Positions 1 to 33,816 of a stretch of 33,816 nucleotides of DNA are shown in pieces. Positions within the stretch are counted from its first letter, which is position 1, and each line of letters begins with the position of its first letter. Made by a program: the position numbers and the translations under genes. Where the stretch lies: IMG/VR virus record IMGVR_UViG_2850761752_000005. One strand, given 5' to 3'. The notes beneath the pieces were generated by a model. It did no database searches, was not told where the DNA came from, and worked only from the letters and a program-made list of their open reading frames with translations. Source of the DNA: a virus (lineage: Duplodnaviria; Heunggongvirae; Uroviricota; Caudoviricetes).

Positions 1-258
1 ATGCAAACCGTTATTTTTGGTCGTTCGGGTTGCCCTTACTGTGTGCGTGCAAAAGATCTGGCTGAGAAATTGAGCAATGAACGCGATGATTTTCAGTATC
101 AGTATGTAGATATTCGTGCGGAAGGGATCACTAAAGAAGATCTACAACAAAAGGCAGGTAAACCCGTAGAAACCGTGCCGCAGATTTTTGTCGATCAGCA
201 ACATATCGGCGGCTATACCGATTTTGCTGCATGGGTGAAAGAAAATCTGGACGCCTGA
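1..258 (+). CDS. grxA: glutaredoxin 1
   Basis: 85-aa ORF starting at window position 1; CPYC redox motif; matches recalled E. coli GrxA. Confidence 0.9.
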   Translation: MQTVIFGRSGCPYCVRAKDLAEKLSNERDDFQYQYVDIRAEGITKEDLQQKAGKPVETVPQIFVDQQHIGGYTDFAAWVKENLDA

Positions 259-268
259 TCGTCTGACA

Positions 269-300
269 AGCCCTCGCGTTGAGGGCTTTACTGATTTTTT
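269..300 (+). terminator. Putative intrinsic terminator between convergent grxA and ybjM
   Basis: Seen in sequence: 7-bp GC-rich stem AGCCCTC / GAGGGCT with 5-nt loop, followed by TTACTGATTTTTT. Confidence 0.45.
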
Positions 301-665
301 CTGTGCTGTGGTTTAAACAAACTACTGATAAATAAGAAACACAGTGCCCCCAGCGCACACCAGAACACCGCGCTTAGTAACCATGCCAGCTCTTGCCAGA
401 ATGAGCGCGTCGGTGAAAAAAACAGCCGCATAATGAGCATTGAACAGGGTGCCGCCAGCATTGCGCCAAATAGAGGTTTCAGGACTTCTCTACGCTGTGA
501 AAAGAAACTGGCAACTGCTCCAGGAAGAATGAAAAACAGCAAGCCGATTTCAGGATGCCCGGCAGCCCGAAAAGCGCCTTTCATGTGCGTCGCCAGAAAA
601 AGGCACACCACAATGAAGAGGACAAAACAGCAGATTGCCCCCGCCCAACGTTGTTTATGTTTCAC
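288..665 (-). CDS. ybjM: inner membrane protein YbjM
   Basis: 125-aa hydrophobic ORF; lies between grxA and ybjL as in E. coli K-12 (gene order from memory). Confidence 0.75.
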   Translation of the reverse strand: MKHKQRWAGAICCFVLFIVVCLFLATHMKGAFRAAGHPEIGLLFFILPGAVASFFSQRREVLKPLFGAMLAAPCSMLIMRLFFSPTRSFWQELAWLLSAVFWCALGALCFLFISSLFKPQHRKNQ

Positions 666-934
666 TCGTTCCTCCTGACACTGCGTCTATCGAACACATT
701 TTTCGCCAGTGTGGCGTTCAGTAAGATAAAGCCGCTTCGCATTCCATGCTAATATAGGCCAACGCAATTCATATAGCCGTTGATACCTAATGTGATTACA
801 CTAGTAAAATATATTGTTACTTTACTATCGTTTAGGTGCGCTGAATGAATCTGCGCCCTGAATTCTGGTAAAAAACATTATCGTAAATTACCATTTCTTT
901 CAACAGCTTACTAGTAAACAAGAAGTTAGCCTCC

Positions 935-2620
935 GTGAATATAAACGTCGCCGAATTGTTAAATGGGAATTACATTCTGTTATTATTTGTGGTCCTCGCG
1001 CTTGGGCTATGTCTCGGAAAGTTACGACTTGGTTCGATCCAACTGGGTAATTCCATTGGCGTTTTAGTCGTATCGCTGTTATTAGGCCAACAACATTTCA
1101 GCATTAACACCGATGCGCTTAATCTTGGCTTTATGCTGTTTATTTTCTGCGTCGGGGTCGAAGCCGGACCGAACTTTTTTTCCATTTTTTTTCGCGATGG
1201 GAAAAATTACCTAATGTTAGCACTGGTGATGGTTGGCAGTGCGCTGGTGATCGCCTTAGGGTTAGGTAAGCTGTTTGGCTGGGATATTGGCCTGACGGCC
1301 GGTATGTTAGCAGGCTCTATGACGTCGACACCGGTTCTGGTCGGTGCTGGCGATACACTGCGTCATTCCGGCATGGAAAGCAGGCAGCTCTCACTGGCAC
1401 TGGATAATCTGAGCCTCGGGTATGCCTTAACCTATTTAATCGGTCTGGTGAGTTTGATTGTTGGTGCGCGTTACTTGCCGAAATTGCAGCATCAGGACTT
1501 ACAGACCAGCGCCCAGCAAATCGCCCGCGAACGTGGCCTGGACACTGATGCCAACCGTAAGGTTTATTTACCGGTGATCCGCGCCTATCGCGTCGGCCCG
1601 GAGCTGGTGGCCTGGACCGACGGCAAAAATCTGCGTGAACTGGGTATTTATCGACAAACCGGCTGCTACATTGAACGTATTCGACGTAACGGGATTCTGG
1701 CAAATCCAGACGGTGATGCCGTGCTACAAATGGGCGATGAAATAGCGTTGGTAGGCTATCCCGACGCCCATGCCCGACTCGATCCCAGCTTCCGTAACGG
1801 TAAAGAAGTTTTCGATCGTGACCTTCTCGACATGCGTATCGTCACTGAAGAAGTGGTCGTTAAAAACCATAACGCTGTAGGTAAACGTCTCGCACAACTG
1901 AAGTTGACCGATCACGGTTGCTTCCTTAACCGCGTCATTCGTAGCCAGATTGAGATGCCGATAGATGACAACGTCGTGCTTAACAAAGGTGACGTTTTAC
2001 AAGTCAGCGGTGATGCCCGTCGCGTAAAAACCATCGCCGATCGCATCGGCTTTATCTCGATTCACAGCCAGGTCACTGACCTGCTGGCATTTTGCGCCTT
2101 CTTTGTTATTGGGCTGATGATCGGGATGATCACCTTCCAGTTCAGCACATTCAGTTTCGGCATGGGGAACGCTGCCGGGTTGTTATTCGCCGGAATTATG
2201 CTGGGCTTTATGCGTGCTAACCACCCGACCTTCGGTTACATTCCGCAAGGTGCATTAAGCATGGTGAAAGAGTTCGGCTTGATGGTGTTTATGGCAGGCG
2301 TTGGTCTGAGCGCCGGTAGCGGTATTAATAACGGCCTGGGCGCGATTGGCGGTCAGATGTTGATTGCCGGATTAATTGTCAGTCTTGTGCCCGTGGTTAT
2401 CTGTTTCTTGTTCGGTGCTTATGTATTGCGAATGAACCGCGCACTGTTGTTCGGCGCAATGATGGGCGCACGCACCTGCGCGCCGGCAATGGAGATCATC
2501 AGTGATACAGCTCACAGTAACATCCCTGCGCTGGGCTATGCGGGCACCTACGCAATCGCCAACGTCCTGCTGACGCTGGCAGGGACAATCATCGTCATGG
2601 TATGGCCAGGATTAGGATAA
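935..2620 (+). CDS. ybjL: putative transport protein YbjL (AAE-family membrane transporter)
   Basis: 561-aa ORF with GTG start; hydrophobic N- and C-terminal halves around a soluble central region; matches recalled YbjL length and sequence. Confidence 0.85.
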
Positions 2621-2732
2621 AACTGAAGTTGCCCTGAAAATGAAATTTTTTTGCACAACCGCAGAACTTTTCCGCAGGGCATCAGTCTTAATTAGTGCCA
2701 CTGCTTTTCTTTGATGTCCCCATTTTGTGGAG

Positions 2733-2779
2733 CCCATCAACCCCGCCATTTCGGTTCAAGGTTGATGGGTTTTTTGTTG
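2733..2779 (+). terminator. Putative rho-independent terminator downstream of ybjL, at the host/prophage junction
   Basis: Perfect 10-bp inverted repeat CCCATCAACC ... GGTTGATGGG followed by TTTTTTGTTG. Confidence 0.45.
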
Positions 2780-2855
2780 TCTGAAATTTATGCCTTTTAA
2801 AATCATGATGTTAGAAGCACTGTTTTTTAACGATGGCGACAAAATGGCGGCAGCG

Positions 2856-3074
2856 TCAAAGAGAGAGCGCCACCTGTCCTGATTTCATTGGATGCGGCTG
2901 AACCGGATTTGACTCTTTTGGCGTTGCAATCGAACGAACAAAAGTTTCATGGGTAACAAAAGTATGGCTGCAGTTAATGTTCTGGCACTGGTTGTAACGC
3001 TCTTTGGTCAATGAAGATACCTGAAAACTGCTGCGAGTATGGGCGGCACTTCCACACAGTGGGCAAATCATCAT
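2856..3074 (-). CDS. ogr: P2 Ogr-type zinc-finger late transcription activator
   Basis: 72 aa from ATG at 3074 (the ORF track extends to a GTG at 3107); CPLCG...CQNINC cysteine pattern and overall similarity to recalled P2 Ogr. Confidence 0.85.
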   Translation of the reverse strand: MMICPLCGSAAHTRSSFQVSSLTKERYNQCQNINCSHTFVTHETFVRSIATPKESNPVQPHPMKSGQVALSL

Positions 3075-3164
3075 TTTTCGAGTTCTCCCCATTTTTGCTA
3101 AATTCACAATAATGATACCGCATTATTCCATTTTGCAAACTTAAAAGTTCTCCATTGCGAAGAA

Positions 3165-4265
3165 TCATTCCATTTCGAAATCATCAATCCTCACTTCAAG
3201 CTCCAGACTGGTCGTAAAACCGTTATCCGGGCTGACAGTATGCGTCAGAGTCGTAATGGTCCATTCCGCATCATCTAGCGGCTGTTTAAAGCCACTGACC
3301 TTCACAGGCATTTCTGTGTAGAGATCTGCCCGCCCTTCCGCCAGTTGTAGCGAGAATGATGCAACGCCGCGTTGCAGGCGTTCCCACTGCATTTTCGCTG
3401 CCCGTTCGGCGTTGCTCCGGTTGGCATAAGTGCGATTAAGTACCAGCACGTTTTCATCCGTACCCACCAGGTAATCGCCCTGCTTCGCTTCCGGCTCTTT
3501 CTTCTGCTTCTTAGTCCTGCGCTTACGCTTCACCGTGGTGCTTTCTTTCTTCGCGGGTTCGCGGGTATGCAACCAGCTGGCAATGACGCCCGTGTAAGCT
3601 CCGCGATCTGCCAGGGTAAAGCGGTGACTGTCGCCGTCCTTGCGTGTGATAGTGATCACCGGTAGTGGTTTACCGCTGGCGCTTTTACCCTGCCCCTGCC
3701 GGATGAATAACAGATTGCCATTTTTCACCGACGCAATAGCACCGTACTGGCGCGCCAGCCGCATCAAAAAACTGCCGTCACTCTCATTAGTCTGGTCTAT
3801 ATGCTCCACGAGTTTATCCGACAAGTCTTCACCCAATGCCATCTTCAGTTTGTGCCGCGCAGCTATTTCCTTCACCACTTCCCCAACGGTGGTCTTGTGC
3901 CACGACTTTTCACGGCGGGTATTCAGCGTTTCACGAAAATCAGCACTTCGCGCCCGGATAGTCAGGCGATCCGGTGCGCCAGTGTGTTCAATCTCGTCCA
4001 CCGTGAATGCCCCTTTCGGGAAAAGCGGCTGTCCCTTCCAGCCCAGCGCCAGCGTAATGACAGCCCCACGGCGCGGCAGCACGATTTTTCCATCGGCGTC
4101 GTCCAGCTCCAGATCAAGCTGGTCCGCTTCAAAGCCCCGGTTATCCGTCAGCGTCAGCCCCATCAGGCGGTTGTCCAGCACAGTGGTGATATCCCTGCCT
4201 TCAATACTGATGCTGAATGCCGGAGTTTTGTTGCCTTTGTTAAGCAGTTCAGAGCTGAAATTCAC
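3165..4265 (-). CDS. D: P2 gpD-like tail protein (late control D)
   Basis: 366-aa ORF; GTG start overlaps the U stop (GTGA); position after U and before ogr as in P2. Confidence 0.8.
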   Translation of the reverse strand: MNFSSELLNKGNKTPAFSISIEGRDITTVLDNRLMGLTLTDNRGFEADQLDLELDDADGKIVLPRRGAVITLALGWKGQPLFPKGAFTVDEIEHTGAPDRLTIRARSADFRETLNTRREKSWHKTTVGEVVKEIAARHKLKMALGEDLSDKLVEHIDQTNESDGSFLMRLARQYGAIASVKNGNLLFIRQGQGKSASGKPLPVITITRKDGDSHRFTLADRGAYTGVIASWLHTREPAKKESTTVKRKRRTKKQKKEPEAKQGDYLVGTDENVLVLNRTYANRSNAERAAKMQWERLQRGVASFSLQLAEGRADLYTEMPVKVSGFKQPLDDAEWTITTLTHTVSPDNGFTTSLELEVRIDDFEME

Positions 4266-4747
4266 GACAGCAGCCCTCCCACCGTTTTACTGATATCGCT
4301 TAAGGCAGATGTTGCCGTTCCCTGCAGATTATTCAGTTGCGCACTGAGATCACCGAACATATCGGACAGGGATTCATCCACGCGTTTTAGCGACAGGGTG
4401 AACTCAATCCGGCGCGGCATACCGTCGCGGAAAAACTCCGTTTTAGTCTGATTCAGTCCCTCAATCACATACATGCCGTAAATCGTGCCGCTGCCTTCAA
4501 TCAGGGGCCATGCTTTTCCCTGTTCTGCCATCTGCTCCAGAGCCAGCAACGACAGCCTGCCGCCCGTTACCTCCGGCATAAGAACACCAGAAAGCGTCAG
4601 CATGTCGTTGTCCGGTCCCAGAAACTGCGTTGACGGGCGTCGGTTTACCCGGCTGTTTGCCGCATGTCGCCAGCTGCGTTGATACTGCAGCTCCTGATAC
4701 GGCACGGTGCGCAGCATAAACACGTACAATCCCAGCACCATCATCAT
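4262..4747 (-). CDS. U: P2 gpU-like tail protein
   Basis: 161-aa ORF, similar in size to P2 U (159 aa); ATG overlaps the T stop. Confidence 0.8.
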   Translation of the reverse strand: MMMVLGLYVFMLRTVPYQELQYQRSWRHAANSRVNRRPSTQFLGPDNDMLTLSGVLMPEVTGGRLSLLALEQMAEQGKAWPLIEGSGTIYGMYVIEGLNQTKTEFFRDGMPRRIEFTLSLKRVDESLSDMFGDLSAQLNNLQGTATSALSDISKTVGGLLS

Positions 4748-7700
4748 GCGTCGTATCCCCCCTGATCGCTGTAGTTACTCCTGGCTTTTGCCTTCAGCCT
4801 GCGTTCACGTTCATCAAGCTGGCGGGCCACCTCCCGCGCAATATCCTGCGCACTTTGTCCTGGCTGCGTTTGAATGATGATCTGCATCGGTGCCTCAATC
4901 CGTTGAACGGGCGGCACAGTGGCTGCACGACTCACCATCGCTTCACCGCCTTTCGCGGGAAGTGCCAAAGGGTGCAACGGTGGAAGCTCTGCTGGCGTAG
5001 CAGCAACACCCATCATTCCGGCAACAACGGCAGCCAGTGCAGCTGTATTTCTCCGGCTGGTCACATTTGCCGGGCCGTTAACAATTTCCGGCCCGTTTTC
5101 ACCGACGATGCCAAACTGCCCGCGCGGGATATACCCGCCGCTGTCATACATCCCCGCAAAGCCATATCCCCATGACGGAAAACCACCCGATGGCATCATC
5201 ACTTTACCGTCTGCATTCACCGTCGCAGGTTGCTGACGCGTCACGCTTTCCGGCAGTTTCGCCTTTGCGGCCTCTTTACTGACAATGCCAAGTTTCTCCA
5301 GCAACCAGGAAACGCCGGATTTCAGGGAGTCCAGCGGATGCATGACCATATTCAGCCCTTCCGCCAGAGCCTCCCCGAATCGTCGCCCCATTGCCGCTGC
5401 ACTCTGCAGTTCGGCAGAGGTCGACTTAACGGGCGTCAGCAGATCAGTAAACCAGCCCCACAGCGCCTGTACTTTGTCGCCAATCCACTGGAACACAGGC
5501 TTAAGCGGTTCGAACGCGGCACTGACAGGACCTGCCGCCGCTTTGAATCCTTCCACCACGCCACCGAGAAATGCGGTGATGGGCTGCCAGTATTTCCAGA
5601 CAACCAGCGCCACACCCGCCAGTGCAGTAACCACAAGACCTATCAGACTGAGCAGAGCACCTAACAGACCAGAGACGGCATACAGGGCAACGCGCAGCAT
5701 CGCCAGTGGACCGGATGCGAGCATACGCAGCACCGTGCCTGTGGCAGCCAGTCCGCCGCGTAGTACCGCCAGTGGATTCATAAACATCACAGCAACCGCA
5801 CGTAAACCGGATAATCCAGACCGCAAAAGTGCAACCGGCGCACCTGCTACAGTTTTCAGGACATTTCCCGTCAGTGATGCCGTGCGGCGCAAAGACGACA
5901 ACGGCGCAGTAAGTAAACCTGCAGCGTTGCCCGATGAAGCAAGCCCGCGTCGCAGCAGTGCCAGTGGTGCGCCAGCCAGCCAGGACAACGCGTTGCTGGT
6001 TCGGGTTACTGTTGCCGTAACGGAAGGTAACGTTTTGATACCCAGCACAGAGAATCCCAGACGGATGACTGCCAGCGGCCCCAGCACTGCAGCCAGCGCC
6101 ACCGCTAAGGTGCCGAGGCCCACGGTAACGGCAGCTACCACAGCGGCTACTTTCATCAGAGTGCCCGTCAGTTCCGGGTTAGCTTCCACCCAGCGACGCA
6201 ACGCCCCCGTGACGCTTTTCACCGTGTACAGAATATCCATCAGCGGCTGGCGCAGCGTTTCCCCCAGGCTGCTGAAGGTGTTCTGTGCTCCGGTTTTGAC
6301 CAGCAACCACTGAGCAGAAAGTGAATCCTTGTTGATGTCGGATTCTTTCTGCATGGAACCGAGCGCATCATTGCCCGCAGTCAGTTTTAACTGGCGCTGA
6401 AGTTCCGGCAGGTTGTTTGCCAGTTTCGCTGCGTCATCGCCAAACTCTTTACCAAACAACATGGTCATGGCAGACAGGCGCTTATCCTGTGGCAGCGCAT
6501 TCACCTTCTCCAGCACCCGCTGGATAGTTCCCATCGCATCCTTCGTCATCTGCTTTTCAATCACTTCTGGATTGAGTTTCAGCAGATTCATCCCTTCAAA
6601 GAAACTCTTGCTTTGCATGGTGGCAATGGACAATTCACGCACCATCGCGTTTGCTGCACTGGCTGCAACCTCAGGCGCAGCGCCGAGTGTCAGGAAGGTG
6701 GAACCCAGCGCCGCCGCTTTACGATAATCCAGACGGTCAGCCACACCGCCCAGGCGTTGCATGACATCAATGATGTCCGCCCCTTTCGACATGGCGTTAT
6801 CATCCAGATAGTTCAGCGCATCACCGAGCTGCTCAATATTGCGGGTAGGGATTTTGTAGAGCTGGGCGATTTTCCCCAGACTTTCTGACAGTTCATCCGC
6901 TGGCAGTTCAAAGGCTGTTGCCGCCTTTGCCGCCGTGCTGGCGAAGGCCAGCAGGTCACGTTTCTGGTCTTCCCAGCTGTCGTCAGGGTTTGCGACGTTC
7001 ATGCGCGCACCACCTTCAACCAGTGCGGCGAAGTCCACAGCACCGTTTTCCATCGGCAACTGTTCGCTGGCAGCCTTGATGGCACCCTGCATTTCGTAAA
7101 AACGCGCAGTGCGGTTGCCATTATCGTCACGCAGACCATTGACCTGCTTTGCCACACCTTTCATGGCATCTTCCATGCTGGTATAGCTTTTTACTGCCGC
7201 CATCACTGGTGCGCCCATTGCCAGCCCTGCAGCCGTGGTGGTGGCTCCGGCACCTGCAATACGATCCCTTACCTCAAGACGCCTGGCGTAAGCCCCCGGG
7301 CGGCGTGCATTTTTCGCTGTTGCTCCCCGACACGTCGTAACCTCGCTTCCTGCTCAGAAAGCTGCCTGTTATAACGCATCGTTTCACGGGTAATGCGGGC
7401 CGTCGCACTGGCGCCATCATTAGCTGAAATACCAGCACGATAAAGTTCTGCACGCACAAGCGCCGTCTGCTGCTGCAGCTTTTTCTGGCGTTCTTCTAGG
7501 CGCTGAACAGCCAGCCGTTGACGGCCCAGAGCAACAACCTGACGTTGCGAAGGCGGCCCCATCGCTCCCAGTTCCTGACTGAGCAAATTTGCACGCTGGC
7601 GGGCATAGTTCAGCCTGTCGCCTAATTTCTGATTTTCTGCCTGCAGCTTTCGGAAGCTGTCCAGACTGCTCCCGGCCTGATCAAGCTGCTTTATTGCATC

Positions 7701-7820
7701 GCGGGATTTTTTGACAGCAGCAGCCAGTTCTCTTGAACTGGCCTGCGCGGATCGAAATGGGCGGGTGAGTTTGTCAACCGCATTAAGAATCACCTGCAGA
7801 CGCAGGTTATTGTCACTCAT
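4744..7820 (-). CDS. T: tail tape measure protein (gpT-like), interrupted by an apparent single-base frameshift
   Basis: Two ORFs: 7269..7820 (183 aa, coiled-coil-rich; its ATG overlaps the E' stop) and 4744..7218 (824 aa, Gly/Ala/Leu-rich repeats). Their frames differ by one and both are open across about 7269..7355. One extra base in the C5/G run at 7293..7301 would fuse them into about 1025 aa. Confidence 0.7.
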
Positions 7821-8249
7821 GGCTGGCCCCGCTTCTCTGAATCGCTTTATCCCGCCATTCCAGCACTTCGGTCAGCGGCATAACGTCAGTAACGGATGGC
7901 GGCCAGTGAAAGATGGTGGCGATATCAGCCACCAGATCGTCAACCGTCAGGCTGTCGGTAAACCGGCAAGCACCGACTTCTTCAACAAAAAAGTGACAAC
8001 CTCAACCGACATGGCAGTGAGATCTGCCGGGTCCATCTCTGCAATTTCCTGTGCAGTCAGTGCCGGACTGGAGATGCGGGGGATCACGGTCATCATCGCG
8101 TTCACATCCATATCCATAATGGCCTGCAGGCGTGTGCCGCGCAGCGCACCGGACTGCGGTTTACGCAACACAATTTCGGTAATTTCTGTTTTACCGCGCA
8201 TGATGGGAGTATCCAGTTGAATGGTCTTTTCAGTCTGCTTATCGCTCAT
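7813..8249 (-). CDS. E+E' extended chaperone made by programmed -1 frameshift
   Basis: Minus-strand heptamer T TTT TTG (plus 7986..7992) near the E 3' end; the -1 frame stays open for about 59 codons to a TGA at 7813..7815 that overlaps the T start. Predicted length of about 146 aa is close to P2 E+E' (142 aa). Confidence 0.6.
7947..8249 (-). CDS. E: tail assembly chaperone gpE-like
   Basis: 100-aa ORF between FII and T; ends just after a T TTT TTG slippery heptamer. Confidence 0.75.
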   Translation of the reverse strand: MSDKQTEKTIQLDTPIMRGKTEITEIVLRKPQSGALRGTRLQAIMDMDVNAMMTVIPRISSPALTAQEIAEMDPADLTAMSVEVVTFLLKKSVLAGLPTA

Positions 8250-8303
8250 TTTGTTGTCCTGTAAATTAGGTTCTGGCGCGGCATTCCGCGCCGTTCAGAT
8301 ACA

Positions 8304-8819
8304 TCAGAGGCCGAGGGCGTTGCGGTGCGCTTCCATCAGGTCCACACCGTCCACAATTTCCACCATGTTGATCAGGTCCACTTCATAGAGCACCTCACCA
8401 TTGATGGTCAGCTTCGCGTAGCTGTTGGTACTGGTCACTTTGGTAGTGTTGCTTTCGCCCGTCTTCCACTCGCCGGAATCTACTTCTTTGTGACGTCCAC
8501 GCACCACAAGCTCCACGGCCTGCACTTCCCCGGTATCATCACGCTGAATAGAGCCGGTAAAGCGCAGCTGGATGCCATCCACCGTGGCTTTGCCCATCTG
8601 CTTAAACAGCAGCAGTTCAGTACCACCAATGGAAAATTCTGTATCCAGTGCACTGTCATCCAGTCCCAGATCCACATCCACCGCTCCGGGCATACCGCCG
8701 CCGCGATACTTCTCATATTTGCGGGTGAATTTCGGCAGCGTCAGCGACTCAACGATCCCCTGCCAGTTGTTCCCGTCGTTAAACAGGTTCAGGTGTTTTA
8801 ATTTGCGTGGTAAAGCCAT
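8304..8819 (-). CDS. FII: tail tube protein gpFII-like
   Basis: 171-aa ORF (P2 FII is 172 aa); follows the sheath gene. Confidence 0.85.
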   Translation of the reverse strand: MALPRKLKHLNLFNDGNNWQGIVESLTLPKFTRKYEKYRGGGMPGAVDVDLGLDDSALDTEFSIGGTELLLFKQMGKATVDGIQLRFTGSIQRDDTGEVQAVELVVRGRHKEVDSGEWKTGESNTTKVTSTNSYAKLTINGEVLYEVDLINMVEIVDGVDLMEAHRNALGL

Positions 8820-8828
8820 GTTGTCCCC

Positions 8829-10001
8829 TTACGCGCTGACCTGGCTGGAGAAATTCACCAGGTACTGATCGGTGATGCGCTGACGCAGCATCAGGTTTTC
8901 AAGTGGCGGCACTGGCGTGTAGTCGTAATCGATGGTGAGTTTCCCGGCTTTCAGCGTGTCTTTATCGTTCACCGACTCGTCCAGCCAGCAATCACCACCA
9001 ATGAGATAGCCCTGACTGACCAGGCTACGCATTTTGGCGCGGATACCTTCGATAATGTCGCGGGCCAGCGACGGGTTCAGCGGTTTGTCCACCGCCCACA
9101 TGTGCGCTTCTGCCATCGTGTCCATCAGCACCTGCGCCGTGCGGGTGTAGTTTTCGAAGGCAAAGAGCGGATCATCGCTCAGACAGCGGGAACCCCAGAA
9201 GCGGAAACCGTCTTTGCGGATAAGCGTGGTGATATCGTTCTGGTTAAGCAGACCTGCATCGGTTGCCGGGTCCTGCAGATCCCAGAACACATCAGCAGAA
9301 ATTCCGGTGACACCGTTCACGCCCACGTTGGACAGGCTTTTGTGCCATCCGGTCTGCTCATCAATTTTAGCGCGCAGACCGAGCGCACGGGCGGTGGCAT
9401 AAGCCGTTGCTTCGGCATTCAGCACCGTGTCCCAGCCAGTAAAGTCGGGCCAGATCAGCATTCCTTCACGCTGACTGAAGTTTTCACGGTAAGTGATTGC
9501 TTCCTGCACCGTCTTGCAACCATACGCTGACAGGTAAGCAAATCCACGCAGGCTTTGCGCCACGCTCAGCAACTCAGTAGCTACCGCCTTCGTGTCGTGA
9601 CCTGGCACGCCGAGAATGCGCGGTTTAACGCCGAGCTGTGACTGGGCAGATAACAGGGCTTTCATACCTGTTTTTTTACCCTCGGCGGTCACTGCGCCAA
9701 TGATATTGGTTGTGGTTTCTTCTTCCGTTTCACCCTGCGGCACACGCACAACAACGGTCACGGGTTTTGCCTGGTCAGCGATGGCATCCAGCGAACGGGC
9801 CAGCGTGCCAGACTCACCCGCTTTACCGCTGGCGGTCAGCACATCAGTGATCAGCACAGGTTTATTAAGAGGAAACATTTTTGCATCGGCATCATCGCCC
9901 GTGCAGACCATACCCACGATGGCGGTGCTCACCGTGGTAATGGATCGGGTGCCTTCGTTGACTTCAACAACGCGCACCCCGTGGTGGTAATCCTGAGCCA
10001 T
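8829..10001 (-). CDS. FI: contractile tail sheath protein gpFI-like
   Basis: 390-aa ORF (P2 FI is 396 aa); first gene of the FI-FII-E-T-U-D operon. Confidence 0.85.
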
Positions 10002-10077
10002 AGTGGCGAACCTCCTGATTGGATTAGGCTTCGCCCTATGTTGAAGTGATTGTGCCTGACAAACAGCTAAGCGCAGT

Positions 10078-10095
10078 TGTGTCGTTATTCACACA
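10078..10095 (-). promoter_or_regulatory. Candidate Ogr-dependent late promoter element (TGT-N12-ACA) for the FI operon
   Basis: TGTGTCGTTATTCACACA, centred about 85 nt upstream of the FI ATG, as expected for a -55 activator site plus leader. Confidence 0.4.
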
Positions 10096-10143
10096 AAATG
10101 ACGGTATTTGTCCGCTTACAGGAAAAATCAAAATAATACTGAC

Positions 10144-10710
10144 TCAGGGCGATTCATTGCTCTCATTCGCCGGAAATTTTCTATAAATGGTAGAAACGCC
10201 CACATCAAAAATCAGTGCAATACGCTGTCTTGATTCTCCGGCCTCGAGTAAACGTCCAATCTGTGCCCACTGTTCGGTGGTCAACTTAGGACGGCGTCCA
10301 CCTACTCTGCCTTTGGCACGAGCTGCAGCCAGCCCTGCTCTGGTACGTTCAACTATCAGTTCACGTTCCATTTCAGCCAGAGCCCCCATGACGTGAAAAA
10401 AGAAACGGCCCATTGGGGTACTGGTATCAATACTGTCAGTCAGGCTTCGGAAATTCACACCACGCTGGCGCAACTCTTCTATCAGCGTAACAAGATGCCG
10501 CATACTGCGTCCCAGTCTGTCCAGCTTCCAGACAACCAGCGTGTCTCCTGCCGATAGTGTCCTGAGCAGTTTTTTAAGCCCCGGTCTGTCGGGCTTAGTG
10601 CCACTGATTTTATCCTCAAAAATCCGCTCACATCCCGCGCAGTTCAGTGCATTACGTTGCAAATCGGTGTTCTGGTCATTTGTTGACACGCGTACATAGC
10701 CAATAAGCAT
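10144..10710 (-). CDS. serine DNA invertase (Hin/Gin/Pin/Cin family)
   Basis: 188 aa from ATG at 10710; GYVRVSTNDQ catalytic-serine motif at the N-terminus and a C-terminal HTH; the ORF track extends upstream of this start. Confidence 0.85.
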   Translation of the reverse strand: MLIGYVRVSTNDQNTDLQRNALNCAGCERIFEDKISGTKPDRPGLKKLLRTLSAGDTLVVWKLDRLGRSMRHLVTLIEELRQRGVNFRSLTDSIDTSTPMGRFFFHVMGALAEMERELIVERTRAGLAAARAKGRVGGRRPKLTTEQWAQIGRLLEAGESRQRIALIFDVGVSTIYRKFPANESNESP

Positions 10711-10721
10711 GATCAATCCCC

Positions 10722-10747
10722 TGAATAAAAACCGGGGATGATGCCAG
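10722..10747. other. Candidate hix/gix-like inversion crossover site
   Basis: Half-site TGAATAAAAACC resembles the TTATCAAAAACC consensus; lies 12 bp from the invertase start, exactly where the tail-fibre segment reading frame opens (10729). Confidence 0.4.
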
Positions 10748-11127
10748 TTAGCCATTATCTCTGCATTTTCTTAAACGTTGGTTTGGGAGAATTATCTCTG
10801 GCTGGCACTGCATCGGGTGTCATTGGCCTGAATGGGTATGTAACGATTCCGTTAATTATTTCAGGTTCCCGGAGAACACTGATTATTCAGTGGGGGCAGG
10901 CGAGATTTGGTGGGTCTGGTGGTGAAGATGCAGGATATCTTAATGATTTTCCTTTTGCCTTTCCGTCAGCATGTTATGGGATGATAGTTAGTCATGTGGG
11001 GCATACACCTTCAGGCGCAGGAATCCTGTCGGCTTCTGCAATTACATCAAATCAGTTCCGCGGTTTTTCAAGCATAGCGACTGCTGCAAATGCTGTATTA
11101 GGTCGTTATATCGCTATAGGGGTTTAA
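10738..11127 (+). CDS. orphan tail-fibre C-terminal variable segment (Hv'-like), inverted relative to the late operon
   Basis: 129-aa Gly/Ser-rich ORF; frame is open from 10729 at the crossover site; immediately followed by a tail-fibre assembly gene. Confidence 0.5.
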   Translation: MMPVSHYLCIFLNVGLGELSLAGTASGVIGLNGYVTIPLIISGSRRTLIIQWGQARFGGSGGEDAGYLNDFPFAFPSACYGMIVSHVGHTPSGAGILSASAITSNQFRGFSSIATAANAVLGRYIAIGV

Positions 11128-11128
11128 T

Positions 11129-11566
11129 ATGTTTTATAGTCCATCTTTAAACATTTTTGTGAATCCTGCGCTTAAGGATGATTACATTAATGCAAATTCA
11201 TGGCCAGATGATGCTCTGGCTGTCAGTGATGATGTTTATAATGAATTTGCAATCAATACGCCCCCAGATGACAAAATTCGTGTTGCAGGAAAAAATGGAT
11301 TACCCACATGGGCACTAATACCTCCACCATCATATGAAGAACTTATTCAACAGGCAGAATCAGAAAGGCAATTATTGCTTAATCAGGCCAACGAATACAT
11401 GAACAGTAAACAATGGCCCGGTAAAGCCGCTATTGGTCGTCTGAAAGGTGAGGAACTGGCGCAATATAATTTGTGGCTGGATTATCTGGACGCACTGGAA
11501 CTGATTGATACCTCCAGTGCTCCAGATATTGAATGGCCTACGCCTCCGGCAGTTCAGGCCAGATGA
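11129..11566 (+). CDS. tail fibre assembly protein (Tfa/gpG-like)
   Basis: 145-aa ORF ending in the DIEWPTPP motif typical of Tfa proteins. Confidence 0.7.
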   Translation: MFYSPSLNIFVNPALKDDYINANSWPDDALAVSDDVYNEFAINTPPDDKIRVAGKNGLPTWALIPPPSYEELIQQAESERQLLLNQANEYMNSKQWPGKAAIGRLKGEELAQYNLWLDYLDALELIDTSSAPDIEWPTPPAVQAR

Positions 11567-11652
11567 CATCCGGCGCGGTGCTGGTATCTGTTGCCGCCAC
11601 CGCGTCAATGTAATCCAACACGGCGTTAAGTCGGGTGGGTAATGACTCCAAC

Positions 11653-12156
11653 TTACTGATAGTGTTTTATGTTCAGATAATGCCCGATGACCTTGTCATG
11701 CAGCTCCACCGATTTTGAGAACGACAGTGACTTCCGTCCCAGCCTTGCCAGATGTTGTCTCAGATTCAGATTATGTCGCTCAATGCGCTGAGTGTAACGC
11801 TTGCTGATAACGTGCAGCTTTCCCTTCAGGCGTGATTCATACAGCGGCCAGCCATCCGTCATCCATACCACGACCTCAAAGGCCGACAGCAGGCTCAGAA
11901 GACGCTCCAGTGTGGCCAGAGTGCGTTCACCGAAGACGTGCGCCACAACCGTCCTCCGTATCCTGTCATACGCGTAAAACAGCCAGCGCTGACGTGATTT
12001 AGCACCGACGTAGCCCCACTGTTCGTCCATTTCAGCGCAGACAATCACATCACTGCCCGGTTGTATGCGCGAGGTTACCGACTGCGGCCTGAGTTTTTTA
12101 AGTGACGTAAAACCGTGTTGAGGCCAACGCCCATAATGCGTGCACTGGCGCGACAT
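11653..12156 (-). CDS. insB: IS1 InsB
   Basis: 167-aa ORF matching recalled InsB; overlaps the insA 3' end. Confidence 0.95.
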
Positions 12157-12350
12157 CCGACGCCATTCATGGCCATATCAATGATTTTCTGGTGCGTACC
12201 GGGCTGAGAGGCGGTGTAAGTGAACTGTAGTTGCCATGTTTTACGGCAATGAGAGCAGAGATAGCGCTGATGTCCGGCAGTGCTTTTGCCGTTACGCACC
12301 ACGCCTTCAGTAGCGGAGCAGGAAGGACATCTGATGGAAATGGAAGCCAC
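12075..12350 (-). CDS. insA: IS1 InsA
   Basis: 91-aa ORF matching recalled InsA. Confidence 0.95.
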
Positions 12351-12428
12351 GCAAGCACCTTAAAATCACCATCATACACTAAATCAGTAAGTTGGCAGCA
12401 TTACCACTCAATTGAAAACAAATAAAAA

Positions 12429-27720: not shown

Positions 27721-27728
27721 TGAAGTGG

Positions 27729-28897
<1,169 letters not shown>

Positions 28898-28969
28898 TGG
28901 AGCACCTGTGTTGTTCTGAGGTGAGCATATCACCTCTGTTCAGGTGGCCAAATTCAGTGTGCCACTTCA

Positions 28970-29472: not shown

Positions 29473-29501
29473 AACATATGATTGCACAGTGAAATCGTCA
29501 A
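29473..29501 (-). promoter_or_regulatory. Candidate lytic promoter pR driving apl-cII
   Basis: Minus strand TTGACG, 17-bp spacer, TATGTT in the cI/apl intergenic region. Pattern match only. Confidence 0.35.
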
Positions 29502-30095: not shown

Positions 30096-30110
30096 TACCG
30101 GGAGGAAACT

Positions 30111-30302
30111 ATGCTTGGTAAAGTATTTTTTGTGGTTTTATCATGCTCTTTGTTATTAAGCCCACTAACTACCTATGCTAAAAATTATCCTTGTTCTGGG
30201 AAAAAGGGAGGTGTCTCTCACTGTACCTCCGATGGAAAATTTGTTTGCAATGATGGAACTATTAGTAAATCCAAAAAAATCTGTACTAAAAACTCACGAT
30301 AA
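30111..30302 (+). CDS. small secreted Cys-rich protein of unknown function (candidate moron)
   Basis: 63-aa ORF with strong GGGAGG site; N-terminal signal peptide and four Cys in the mature part; 16 nt after the cI stop. Confidence 0.5.
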
Positions 30303-30311
30303 CTTTTGCTT
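30303..30311. repeat. 9-bp target-site duplication CTTTTGCTT of IS1 copy 2 (left)
   Basis: Identical 9-mer at 32393..32401. Confidence 0.85.
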
Positions 30312-30366
30312 GGTAATGCTGCCAACTTACTGATTTAGTGTATGATGGTGATTTTAAGGTGCTTGC

Positions 30367-30642
30367 GTGGCTTCCATTTCCATCAGATGTCCTTCCTGCT
30401 CCGCTACTGAAGGCGTGGTGCGTAACGGCAAAAGCACTGCCGGACATCAGCGCTATCTCTGCTCTCATTGCCGTAAAACATGGCAACTACAGTTCACTTA
30501 CACCGCCTCTCAGCCCGGTACGCACCAGAAAATCATTGATATGGCCATGAATGGCGTCGGATGTCGCGCCAGTGCACGCATTATGGGCGTTGGCCTCAAC
30601 ACGGTTTTACGTCACTTAAAAAACTCAGGCCGCAGTCGGTAA
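30367..30642 (+). CDS. insA: IS1 InsA
   Basis: Identical 91-aa protein to copy 1. Confidence 0.95.
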
Positions 30643-31064
30643 CCTCGCGCATACAACCGGGCAGTGATGTGATTGTCTGCGCTGAAATGGACGAACAGTG
30701 GGGCTACGTCGGTGCTAAATCACGTCAGCGCTGGCTGTTTTACGCGTATGACAGGATACGGAGGACGGTTGTGGCGCACGTCTTCGGTGAACGCACTCTG
30801 GCCACACTGGAGCGTCTTCTGAGCCTGCTGTCGGCCTTTGAGGTCGTGGTATGGATGACGGATGGCTGGCCGCTGTATGAATCACGCCTGAAGGGAAAGC
30901 TGCACGTTATCAGCAAGCGTTACACTCAGCGCATTGAGCGACATAATCTGAATCTGAGACAACATCTGGCAAGGCTGGGACGGAAGTCACTGTCGTTCTC
31001 AAAATCGGTGGAGCTGCATGACAAGGTCATCGGGCATTATCTGAACATAAAACACTATCAGTAA
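30561..31064 (+). CDS. insB: IS1 InsB
   Basis: Identical 167-aa protein to copy 1. Confidence 0.95.
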
Positions 31065-31130
31065 GTTGGAGTCATTTGAACCGCCCCGGGAATCCTGGAG
31101 ACTAAACTCCCTGAGAAAGAGGTAAACAGG

Positions 31131-31457
31131 ATGACTAAAAATACTCGTTTTTCCCCCGAAGTCCGTCAGAGGGCGATTCGTATGGTTCTGGAAAGTCAGG
31201 GCGAATATGACTCACAGTGGGCGGCAATTTGTTCCATTGCCCCAAAGATTGGCTGTACACCGGAGACTCTGCGTGTCTGGGTACGCCAGCATGAGCGGGA
31301 TACCGGAGGCGGTGATGGCGGGCTCACCACCGCTGAACGTCAGCGTCTGAAAGAGCTGGAACGTGAAAATCGTGAACTGCGCCGCAGTAACGATATCCTT
31401 CGCCAGGCTTCCGCTTATTTTGCGAAGGCGGAGTTCGACCGCCTCTGGAAAAAGTGA
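31131..31457 (+). CDS. IS629 OrfA
   Basis: 108-aa [18 protein letters not shown]..., matching recalled IS629/IS1203 OrfA. Confidence 0.9.
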
Positions 31458-32344
31458 TGCCACTGCTGGATAAGCTGCGTAAGCTGTACGGGGTCGGACC
31501 GGTATGCAGTGAACTACATATTGCCCCGTCAACGTATTACCACTGTCAGCAACAGCGACATCATCCTGATAAACGCAGTGCCCGTGCGCAGCGCGATGAC
31601 TGGCTGAAGAAAGAGATACTGCGCGTATACGATGGGAATCATCAGGTATACGGTGTGCGTAAAGTCTGGCGTCAGTTGTTACGGGAAGGTATCAGAGTGG
31701 CCAGATGCACTGTGGCACGTCTCATGGCGGTTATGGGACTTGCCGGTGTTCTCCGGGGTAAAAAGGTCCGTACGACCATCAGCCGGAAAGCCGTTGCCGC
31801 AGGCGACCGCGTAAACCGTCAGTTCGTGGCAGAACGACCTGACCAGCTGTGGGTGGCTGATTTTACTTACGTCAGCACATGGCAGGGCTTCGTCTATGTG
31901 GCGTTCATTATTGATGTGTTTGCCGGATACATCGTGGGGTGGCGGGTCTCATCGTCCATGGAAACGACATTCGTGCTGGATGCTCTGGAGCAGGCGTTAT
32001 GGGCCCGTCGACCGTCCGGCACGGTCCATCACAGTGATAAAGGTTCTCAGTATGTATCGCTGGCCTACACACAGCGGCTTAAGGAAGCCGGATTACTGGC
32101 ATCAACAGGAAGTACAGGCGACTCGTATGACAACGCGATGGCGGAGAGCATCAATGGTCTTTACAAAGCGGAGGTAATACACCGTAAGAGCTGGAAAAAC
32201 CGTGCAGAAGTGGAACTGGCCACACTCACGTGGGTGGACTGGTATAATAATCGACGATTGCTGGAAAGGCTGGGCCACATCCCTCCGGCAGAAGCAGAAA
32301 AAGCTTATTATGCTTCCATCGGAAACGATGATCTGGCAGCCTGA
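31454..32344 (+). CDS. IS629 OrfB transposase
   Basis: 296-aa ORF with IS3-family DDE region. Confidence 0.9.
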
Positions 32345-32392
32345 GTTCACAGATAAAACACTCTCCAGGAAACCCGGGGCGGTTCAATTACC

Positions 32393-32401
32393 CTTTTGCT
32401 T
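32393..32401. repeat. 9-bp target-site duplication CTTTTGCTT of IS1 copy 2 (right)
   Basis: Identical to 30303..30311. Confidence 0.85.
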
Positions 32402-32580
32402 TTATATCTGCGTCTAAAATAAAAATGAGCCGCAGGTTAACCGCAAAAGTTACATGCTCACATAGCAAAAAGAATAGCCAACTTCATTATGGCTTCAGTG
32501 AGATGTATGGTCGTAGGATTTCATACATTGACACTGGTTATACATACAGTAAAAATACTCTCTACTGGAGGGCATTTTTT

Positions 32581-33441
32581 ATGGCAGTACGAAAACTCAC
32601 CACTGGGAAATGGCTTTGCGAATGTTACCCCGCCGGACGAAGTGGGCGTCGTGTGCGTAAACAATTCGCCACCAAAGGCGAAGCACTGGCTTTTGAGCGC
32701 CACACGATGGAAGAAACCGAAGCAAAGCCCTGGCTGGGTGAATCAGTGGATCGTCGAACACTGAAAGACGTGGTTGAGCTATGGTTCAAACTACATGGTA
32801 AATCTCTGACAGCTGGGCAGCATGTCTATGACAAATTGCTGTTGATGGTTGACGCTCTGGGCAATCCTCTTGCAACCGATCTCACCTCTAAAATGTTTGC
32901 CCACTATCGAGATAAACGCCTGACAGGCGGGATCTACTTCAGCGAGAAATGGAAGAAAGGAGCAAGCCCGGTCACCATTAACCTGGAGCAAAGCTATCTA
33001 AGTAGTGTTTTTAGCGAACTATCCCGTCTGGGCGAATGGTCGTATCCGAACCCACTGGAGAACATGCGAAAATTCACCATCGCAGAAAAAGAGATGGCAT
33101 GGCTTACCCATGAGCAGATTGTTGAATTGCTGGCTGATTGCAAACGTCAGGACCCAATTCTGGCACTGGTAGTTAAGATATGCTTAAGCACAGGCGCACG
33201 CTAGCGTGAAGCCGTAAATCTTACCCGCTCACAGGTGACCAAATACCGAATTACCTTTGTCAGAACGAAGGGAAGAAAAACAGAAGCATCCCTATCAGTA
33301 AAGAGCTTTACGAAGAGATCATGGCGCTTGATGGGTTCAATTTCTTCACAGACTGCTATTTTCAATTTTTATCCGTGATGGAAAAAACGTCTATCGTGCT
33401 CCCTCGCGGTCAACTCACACACGTTCTGCGCCATACGTTTG
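32581..33441 (+). pseudogene. int: P2/186-type tyrosine integrase with amber codon, frameshift and 3' truncation by IS911
   Basis: MAVRKLTTGKW... resembles recalled P2 Int; TAG at 33202..33204 where ...STGARW... is expected; frame change near the A-run at 33271..33280; the HVLRHTF region runs straight into the IS911 end at 33442, so the catalytic Tyr region is lost. Confidence 0.7.

Positions 33442-33816
<375 letters not shown>

Follow-up and report, generated by a model that had tools for sequence, protein, structure and literature searches.

Introduction

IS1 is an element of 768 bp that generates an 8-9 bp target duplication, and both of its inverted repeats are bound by InsA and InsAB' (PMC12428005, PMC12903888). 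The length of IS629 is 1310 bp (PMC3064760, PMC5724897), with a target duplication of 3-4 bp (PMC3271280). IS629 is a member of the IS150 group in the IS3 family, of which IS1203 and IS3411 are isoforms. Both elements are dealt with here in a prophage lysogeny region of the phage 186 type (P2 family). The lysogenic promoter of phage 186 drives joint transcription of cI and int.

In the window (the whole stretch of DNA that was analysed, 33,816 nucleotides), a complete IS629 lies inside the second of two IS1 copies, three base pairs from its right end. The best explanation, to which we assign a probability of roughly 93%, is that the arrangement arose by two successive transpositions, first of IS1 and then of IS629, in the prophage lysogeny region of a Shigella lineage.

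The prophage and its lysogeny region

The lysogeny module resembles that of 186-type prophages near rcdA, with the apl-like gene and cII pointing leftward and cI, a ydcA-like ORF and int pointing rightward, and intact E. coli 186-type prophages are up to 99.7% identical to the window's module. Unlike these intact prophages, the one in the window is degraded: insertions of IS911 (two), IS1 (two) and IS629 (one) are present, int has a nonsense mutation, and sequence has been deleted next to IS1 copy 1 and IS911 copy a.

Related loci, which were given L numbers, were found by an exact-sequence look-up of the truncated integrase (32581-33204). One of them, L005 in Shigella boydii ATCC 8700 (CP026731.1; PMC9430107), matches the window with 100% identity across 11,236 b, and the Pfam domain matches given below were obtained on this locus. 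The genes around the nested pair are as follows.

29520/29526-30095, plus strand: prophage CI repressor gene (RefSeq annotation of the E. coli homologue; Pfam Phage_CI_repr on L005)
30111-30302, plus strand: 63-aa ydcA-like ORF (Pfam YdcA on L005; NCBIfam PRK10040)
32581-33440, plus strand: integrase pseudogene (premature TAG, 1-bp deletion, cut by IS911)

The pair sits within the rightward unit of cI, the ydcA-like ORF and int, and is predicted to be polar on the transcript of these genes. It had been said to separate cI from int. It does lie between the two genes, but the ydcA-like ORF intervenes after cI.

Any such effect has to be seen against the state of int. A TGG codon of this gene has become TAG at 33202-33204 in all the Shigella loci, including those without IS1. 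There is also a 1-bp deletion near 33269, and IS911 cuts the gene from 33441. Through the stop codon and IS911, int is dead independently of the IS1/IS629 pair. With the integrase already inactivated, the pair is therefore likely to have little functional consequence, and its effect on the host should be small.

IS1 copy 2

The IS1 part of the nest is divided between the two sides of IS629, and its features are listed here.

30303-30311, unstranded: left target duplication of IS1, CTTTTGCTT, directly 3' of the TAA stop codon of the ydcA-like ORF
30312-31076, plus strand: IS1 bases 1-765 (100% identity to IS1 copy 1, 11638-12405)
Starting at 30312, plus strand: left inverted repeat (IRL) of IS1
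30367-30642, plus strand: insA
30561-31064, plus strand: insB' ORF
30618-30624, plus strand: A6C frameshift motif of IS1
32390-32392, plus strand: IS1 bases 766-768, ACC, the tip of the right inverted repeat (IRR), completing the 768-bp element
32393-32401, unstranded: right target duplication of IS1, CTTTTGCTT (repeat analysis and script check of the coordinates)

Just inside the left CTTTTGCTT, the element opens with GGTAATGCTGCCAACTTACTGAT. The portion before IS629 ends in ...AAGTTGGAGTCATT at 31076, with the inner portion of the IRR terminating in ...GTTGGAGTCATT. The two CTTTTGCTT copies abut the tips of IS1 exactly, reading GGTAATG... on the left and ...ATTACC on the right.

As a check on the nested structure, the original prediction had proposed the in-silico removal of 31077-32389, and this deletion does restore an IS1 of 768 bp. 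The restored element is 100% identical, in a gap-free alignment, to the other IS1 of the window (11638-12405, minus strand). Its ends read GGTAATG... and ...CATTACC, and 17 of the first 23 bases match the reverse complement of the other end. The insA and insB' ORFs both match the NCBIfam profile for IS1 family transposases, NF033558 (E = 4e-25 and 3.5e-43, respectively), and cover positions 1-81 and 75-199 of it, and L005, which is identical, gives a match to Pfam DDE_Tnp_IS1.

The element agrees with the IS1 family in these features: the terminal inverted repeats are imperfect and some 23-30 bp long, a -1 frameshift motif, A6C, links insA and insB', and the AT-rich target is duplicated over 9 bp. 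The expectation that a canonical IS1 would be recovered holds for its length and organisation, but not for the isoform. The restored IS1 is 99.7-100% identical to a copy annotated as IS1X2 in RefSeq, and its gap-free alignment to an annotated IS1A shows 91.4% identity; by sequence, IS1 copy 2 is an IS1X2/IS1F-like isoform. Unlike in an intact IS1, the last 3 bp of the IRR are found 1313 bp away from the rest.

IS629 within the right end of IS1

The features of IS629 and its target duplication are given below.

31074-31076, unstranded: left target duplication of IS629, ATT (IS1 positions 763-765)
31077-32386, plus strand: complete IS629 of 1310 bp (E. coli copies align end to end)
31077-31101, plus strand: IRL of IS629
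31131-31457, plus strand: orfA
31412-31528: ALIL frameshift pseudoknot (Rfam RF01497, 116 bits; gathering score, 50)
31454-32344, plus strand: orfB
32362-32386, plus strand: IRR of IS629
32387-32389, unstranded: right target duplication of IS629, ATT

The element opens with TGAACCGCCCCGGGAATCC at 31077 and closes with ...GGAAACCCGGGGCGGTTCA at 32386, and thus carries TG...CA ends. In its terminal inverted repeats, TGAACCGCCCCGGG and CCCGGGGCGGTTCA, all 14 of the 14 outer bases match. The orfA and orfB products were both recognised by the NCBIfam model transpos_IS3 (IS3 family transposase; E = 2.7e-11 and 2.3e-92), and Pfam HTH_Tnp_1 and rve were matched on L005, which is identical to the window. 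The ALIL pseudoknot spans the overlap of orfA and orfB. No structural difference from IS629 was seen. The closest annotated relatives of this copy are labelled only as IS3 family, or as IS1203 at 95.9%, so that the name IS629, as opposed to that of a close isoform, rests on the length, the ends, the Shigella origin and the literature.

The interpretation of the target duplications depends on where IS629 is taken to begin and end. Copies of IS629 in E. coli, found in many different contexts, aligned over positions 1-1310 at 98.8-99.4% identity, and these end-to-end alignments fix the boundaries of the element independently of the target duplications. An inverted-repeat search returned 26 nt at 92% around IS629, which takes in a base of the flank at either end. 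As the inverted repeat runs into T 31076 and A 32387, a boundary moved by 1 bp was also considered; it was rejected because it leaves no matching duplication and because the E. coli copies end exactly at positions 1 and 1310.

All coordinates of the nested insertion were found to be exact, both by reading the sequence from 30100 to 32700 and by script, with the last IS1 bases ACC on the far side of IS629. The right inverted repeat of IS1 is therefore broken as described, its terminal ACC lying 1313 bp from the inner IRR.

The repeated 9-mer is weak evidence by itself, since five exact 9-nt direct-repeat pairs occur in the 2.3-kb stretch. The chance of finding the CTTTTGCTT pair exactly at the tips of IS1 is about 4^-9 for fixed positions. 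The weight beyond chance comes from the exact abutment on the IS1 tips, the matches to IS629 over 1-1310, and the earlier stages that are preserved in relatives.

Both insertions had been proposed to be simple transpositions. This agrees with the intact duplications, which show that there was no associated deletion or inversion, but replicative transposition followed by resolution would be indistinguishable from it. The movement of IS1 is reported to be mainly replicative (PMC12903888).

Empty, IS1-only and nested states in relatives

The empty site was searched for with the window sequence minus both elements and one 9-mer, and it was found in one piece, at up to 99.7% identity, in 629 of the 5,426 complete E. 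coli genomes. The empty site of UPEC-245U, ...CACGATAACTTTTGCTTTTATATC..., contains the 9-mer once and is located between a gene for a 63-aa hypothetical protein (ydcA family) and the integrase of a 186/P2-type prophage adjacent to rcdA-ybjJ. The E. coli locus L004 has exactly one CTTTTGCTT at the empty site. The two CTTTTGCTT at the element tips, compared with one at the empty site, bear out the 9-bp duplication around IS1. An empty site is also present in the Shigella loci L012, L016 and L018 (S. boydii 600657), which already have the TAG mutation in int.

The intermediate state is represented by L009 (GCA_000296305.1, AMGB01000027), a Shigella-type draft in which this site is occupied by IS1 alone, again flanked by duplicated CTTTTGCTT. 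The right end of this IS1 is uninterrupted and reads ...GAGTCATTACC, with a single ATT, which agrees with the ATT copies on the two sides of IS629 in the window being a duplication. A comparison with related strains carrying the uninterrupted IS1 was the second check that had been suggested, and L009 answers it.

The nested state, with identical junctions, is found in L005, L006 (an NCTC assembly), L007 (S. flexneri 6 strain 64-5500, CP026811; PMC9455713), L008 and L010, and the right junction is also present in L011 (S. flexneri 6 strain CCH060; PMC4206707) and L014 (a metagenome contig). The junctions are thus shared by at least five independent assemblies, two of which are complete chromosomes (CP026731 and CP026811). 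As both IS1 and IS629 are multicopy in Shigella, the nest could in principle be an assembly artefact made from collapsed or mis-joined repeats, and one draft locus, L013, differs at the right junction and has a cluster of 10 mismatches in the 5' part of IS629, of the kind that repeat mixing would be expected to produce. We give this explanation almost no credence, because the same junctions recur in two finished genomes, the NCTC assembly, several drafts and a metagenome contig, and because they yield exact duplications and an IS1 of exactly 768 bp.

The order of events, IS1 first and IS629 later, follows both from the geometry, in which IS629 was inserted into IS1 sequence, and from L009, whose existence places the insertion of IS629 at the present locus with IS1 already there. 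The events may be reconstructed as follows. In a phage-186/P2-type prophage by rcdA-ybjJ, in a lineage that would include S. boydii ATCC 8700 and S. flexneri serotype 6, a 768-bp IS1X2-like IS1 would first have entered just 3' of the stop codon of the ydcA-like ORF and duplicated CTTTTGCTT. The 1310-bp IS629 would then have entered between IS1 positions 765 and 766, in the same orientation, duplicating ATT and moving the terminal ACC of IS1 1313 bp off.

An alternative is that IS629 joined IS1 elsewhere and that the resulting 2081-bp composite then transposed here as a unit and made the 9-bp duplication. A 9-bp duplication around the whole unit is formally the trace that such an event would leave, and the ATTACC that follows IS629 recreates the last six bases of an IS1 end. 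However, the IS1 of L009 stands alone at the very same site, flanked by the very same duplication, and in the composite the transposase-bound part of the IRR would be 1.3 kb from the tip. Searches for the composite elsewhere point the same way. The exact nest was absent from the 5,426 complete E. coli genomes, which were queried with the whole region and with the IS1(765)/IS629 junction; these queries returned only non-collinear IS1/IS629 pairs or nests elsewhere in IS1. The left junction likewise had no match in the GTDB species representatives or the metagenome contigs. A 22-mer across the right junction had two matches in the metagenome and genome collections, neither of them related to IS1; they were set aside as chance, one being an IS629-like element outside IS1 with a matching flank of 6 bp and the other an unrelated IS3-type end. 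Transposition of a ready-made composite is therefore extremely unlikely.

Another possibility is that the nested state is ancestral and that L009 lost IS629 and one ATT by precise excision, which would leave the order of insertion unchanged. L009 resembles the nested strains in features that look later, as it has the TAG in int and both copies of IS911. Kusumoto et al. (2011) reportedly described that IS629 is excised precisely in E. coli O157 with the help of an IS-excision enhancer. On the other side, excision needs an additional event, and L009 has the ancestral base at the sole informative SNP, which fits a basal position. This SNP, at window position 29479, is the only informative one in the 4.5-kb flank, and the ancestral C is likewise present in the nested loci L007 and L010, so it is compatible with L009 branching before the insertion of IS629, but a single SNP is too few for firm rooting. 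Overall, we consider excision in L009 unlikely and retain the two successive transpositions, with L009 as a probable preserved intermediate. Nothing in the evidence speaks against the structure or the insertion order.

A deviant right junction and nests elsewhere in IS1

In L013 (S. flexneri 6 strain CDC 796-83, a draft), the right junction reads GGTTCA, CC and then CTTTTGCTT, which is four bases shorter than in the window. The IS629 of this locus has 10 differences from the window copy, all within 31165-31308 (the first ~230 bp), and its 3' ~1080 bp are identical. The locus may have undergone a microdeletion together with a conversion tract, or repeats may have been mixed in its assembly; the least likely cause is a separate insertion that duplicated CCC. 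The reading of L013 as an independent insertion of another IS629 subtype is not preferred because the differences are confined to 31165-31308 and the remainder is identical.

Nests of this kind also occur in three unrelated E. coli replicons, where an IS629/IS1203-type element is located in IS1 at about position 155 in strain C325, at about position 443 in plasmid pBS74R-D_5 and at about position 731 in pUMNF18_87; none of the three is at position 765 or in the prophage of the window. As the positions differ, IS1 appears to have been hit repeatedly, with no common hot spot.

The right tip of IS1 could, instead, be a locally preferred or recurrent target of IS629. The CC-CTTTTGCTT junction of L013 would also fit a separate IS629 insertion 4 bp further to the right with a CCC duplication, and in E. 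coli, IS1 has been entered by IS629-type elements at several other points. These E. coli nests are scattered along IS1, and L013 is more simply accounted for by an assembly error or by the loss of 4 bp. We regard a preference for the tip as very unlikely. Were it true that IS3-family elements are drawn to transposase-bound or bent ends of IS1, nesting would give one insertion sequence a systematic means of silencing another.

Nested insertion is routine in Shigella and E. coli, and the case described here is known in kind and involves no new mechanism. Both elements behave as is textbook for their families, and the genome, which is rich in insertion sequences, has already been published and annotated.

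Mobility of the two elements and use of the nest as a marker

The coding regions and frameshift signals are intact in both elements, i.e. insA, A6C and insB' in IS1, and orfA, ALIL and orfB in IS629. IS629 keeps both of its ends, while IS1 keeps an intact IRL and the inner IRR. As the tip at which cleavage occurs is split from the transposase-binding part of the IRR, IS1 copy 2 is probably immobile in cis, a prediction to be read with the limit that the terminal 3 bp alone are displaced and the inner binding part is intact. It could still supply the InsA repressor and the InsAB' transposase in trans. A comparable situation is known from an IS1 construct with a deleted IRR, which was expected by its authors to be immobile and the transposase of which mobilised another IS1 in trans (PMC12903888). 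The nest may therefore be a natural example of an IS1 that has kept its genes and lost its contiguous right end, and it might provide other copies with InsA and InsAB' in trans.

IS629, on the other hand, may still be active. Elements of the IS3 family transpose by copy-out/paste-in, therefore IS629 could seed new copies without restoring IS1.

The nest is an irreversible-looking marker that is common to S. boydii ATCC 8700 and strains of S. flexneri serotype 6. Together with the surviving empty and IS1-only stages, it may be of use in ordering the events of prophage decay and in typing this Shigella lineage.

A minor observation concerns the IS1 of L009, in which one extra G fuses insA to insB' into an ORF of 232 aa. 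The extra base is either an error of sequencing or the mark of a constitutive-transposase allele.

Deletion and inversion at the insertion sequences

Outside the nested pair of IS1 copy 2 and IS629, three further insertion sequence copies lie in the window.

11638-12405, minus strand: IS1 copy 1, in the tail region
27721-28969: IS911, in the cII/fil-dam region, in inverted orientation relative to the other IS911 copy
33441-33816: IS911, in int, running on to ~12109 in L005, the matching Shigella boydii locus

IS1 copy 1 and copy 2, the latter in its restored form, were 100% identical. No target duplication was found around copy 1, the flanking sequences being AAGTCGGGTG and ACTCAATTGA. It has the tail-completion gene S on one side and a tail-fibre assembly gene on the other, and occupies the place where a P2-type phage would be expected to have its genes for baseplate and tail fibre (V, W, J, I, H). 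The missing duplication, together with this location, suggests an adjacent deletion mediated by IS1.

The two IS911 copies were also examined for duplications. The copy in int is flanked by a 3-bp duplication (TTG/TTG), and is therefore a simple insertion. For the copy in the cII/fil-dam region there was no duplication (edges GCG and AAG) and the genes on either side are truncated, which implies that a deletion occurred there. In L007 (CP026811.1, S. flexneri 6 strain 64-5500, 5141-12103), which also carries the nested IS1 and IS629, the 4.5-kb segment between the IS911 copies, containing cI, the ydcA-like gene, IS1::IS629 and the remnant of int, is in the opposite orientation compared to the window, presumably because these two copies, being inverted, recombined with each other. 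The DNA beyond the IS911 in int differs again in L006, another locus with the nested pair, where ParM-like genes come first and then those for portal and terminase.

A deletion was seen in two loci that retain the empty IS1 site, L016 (PTES01000002) and L018 (S. boydii 600657, CP049281, 9019-9956). Both have lost ~20 kb of the prophage at an IS1A-type copy (99% identical to IS1A and 91% to the IS1 of the window), which now bridges two distant points of the window: 30145, a position within the ydcA-like ORF, and 10048, immediately before the start of the tail sheath gene on its upstream side. There was no duplication at the edges of the deletion.

The integrase gene was inactivated independently of the IS elements, by lesions at 33202-33204 and ~33269. 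The first, a TGG to TAG change, is common to all retrieved Shigella loci, including those with an empty IS1 site. The second, a 1-bp deletion in a run of G, was found only in the window and CP026731.

Variation at the nested locus

An independent IS1A was found in the same intergenic spot in L015 (E. coli F1267, NZ_OY754416.1, 3151-3936), and also in NZ_OY754389.1. It lies exactly 9 bp rightward of the Shigella IS1 site in the identical orientation, and is flanked by its own duplication, TTATATCTG, the 9-mer adjoining the Shigella target. This suggests that the AT-rich spacer after the ydcA-like gene is regionally preferred by IS1.

At the right junction of L013 (AERO01000047, S. flexneri 6 strain CDC 796-83, 1-1275) the sequence reads GGTTCA-CC-CTTTTGCTT, without ATTA. 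Between its IS629 and that of the window there are 10 differences, every one of them in the part that corresponds to window 31165-31308; the rest of the element is identical. Possible explanations are a microdeletion accompanied by a conversion tract, an artefact of the assembly, or an insertion that took place separately.

The contig of L012 (Logan ERR126952 contig 17, 1-40), which has the empty site, starts exactly 30 bases ahead of the IS1 insertion point. This hints at a branch of a k = 31 graph at that point, and the sample may therefore contain both occupied and empty alleles.

The uninterrupted IS1 of L009 (AMGB01000027, 9099-9797) is 769 bp, with one additional G (~window 30597) that places insA and insB' in a single frame, giving a fused ORF of 232 aa. 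The extra base may be a sequencing error; if real, this copy would be an allele that makes InsAB' constitutively and has no separate InsA.
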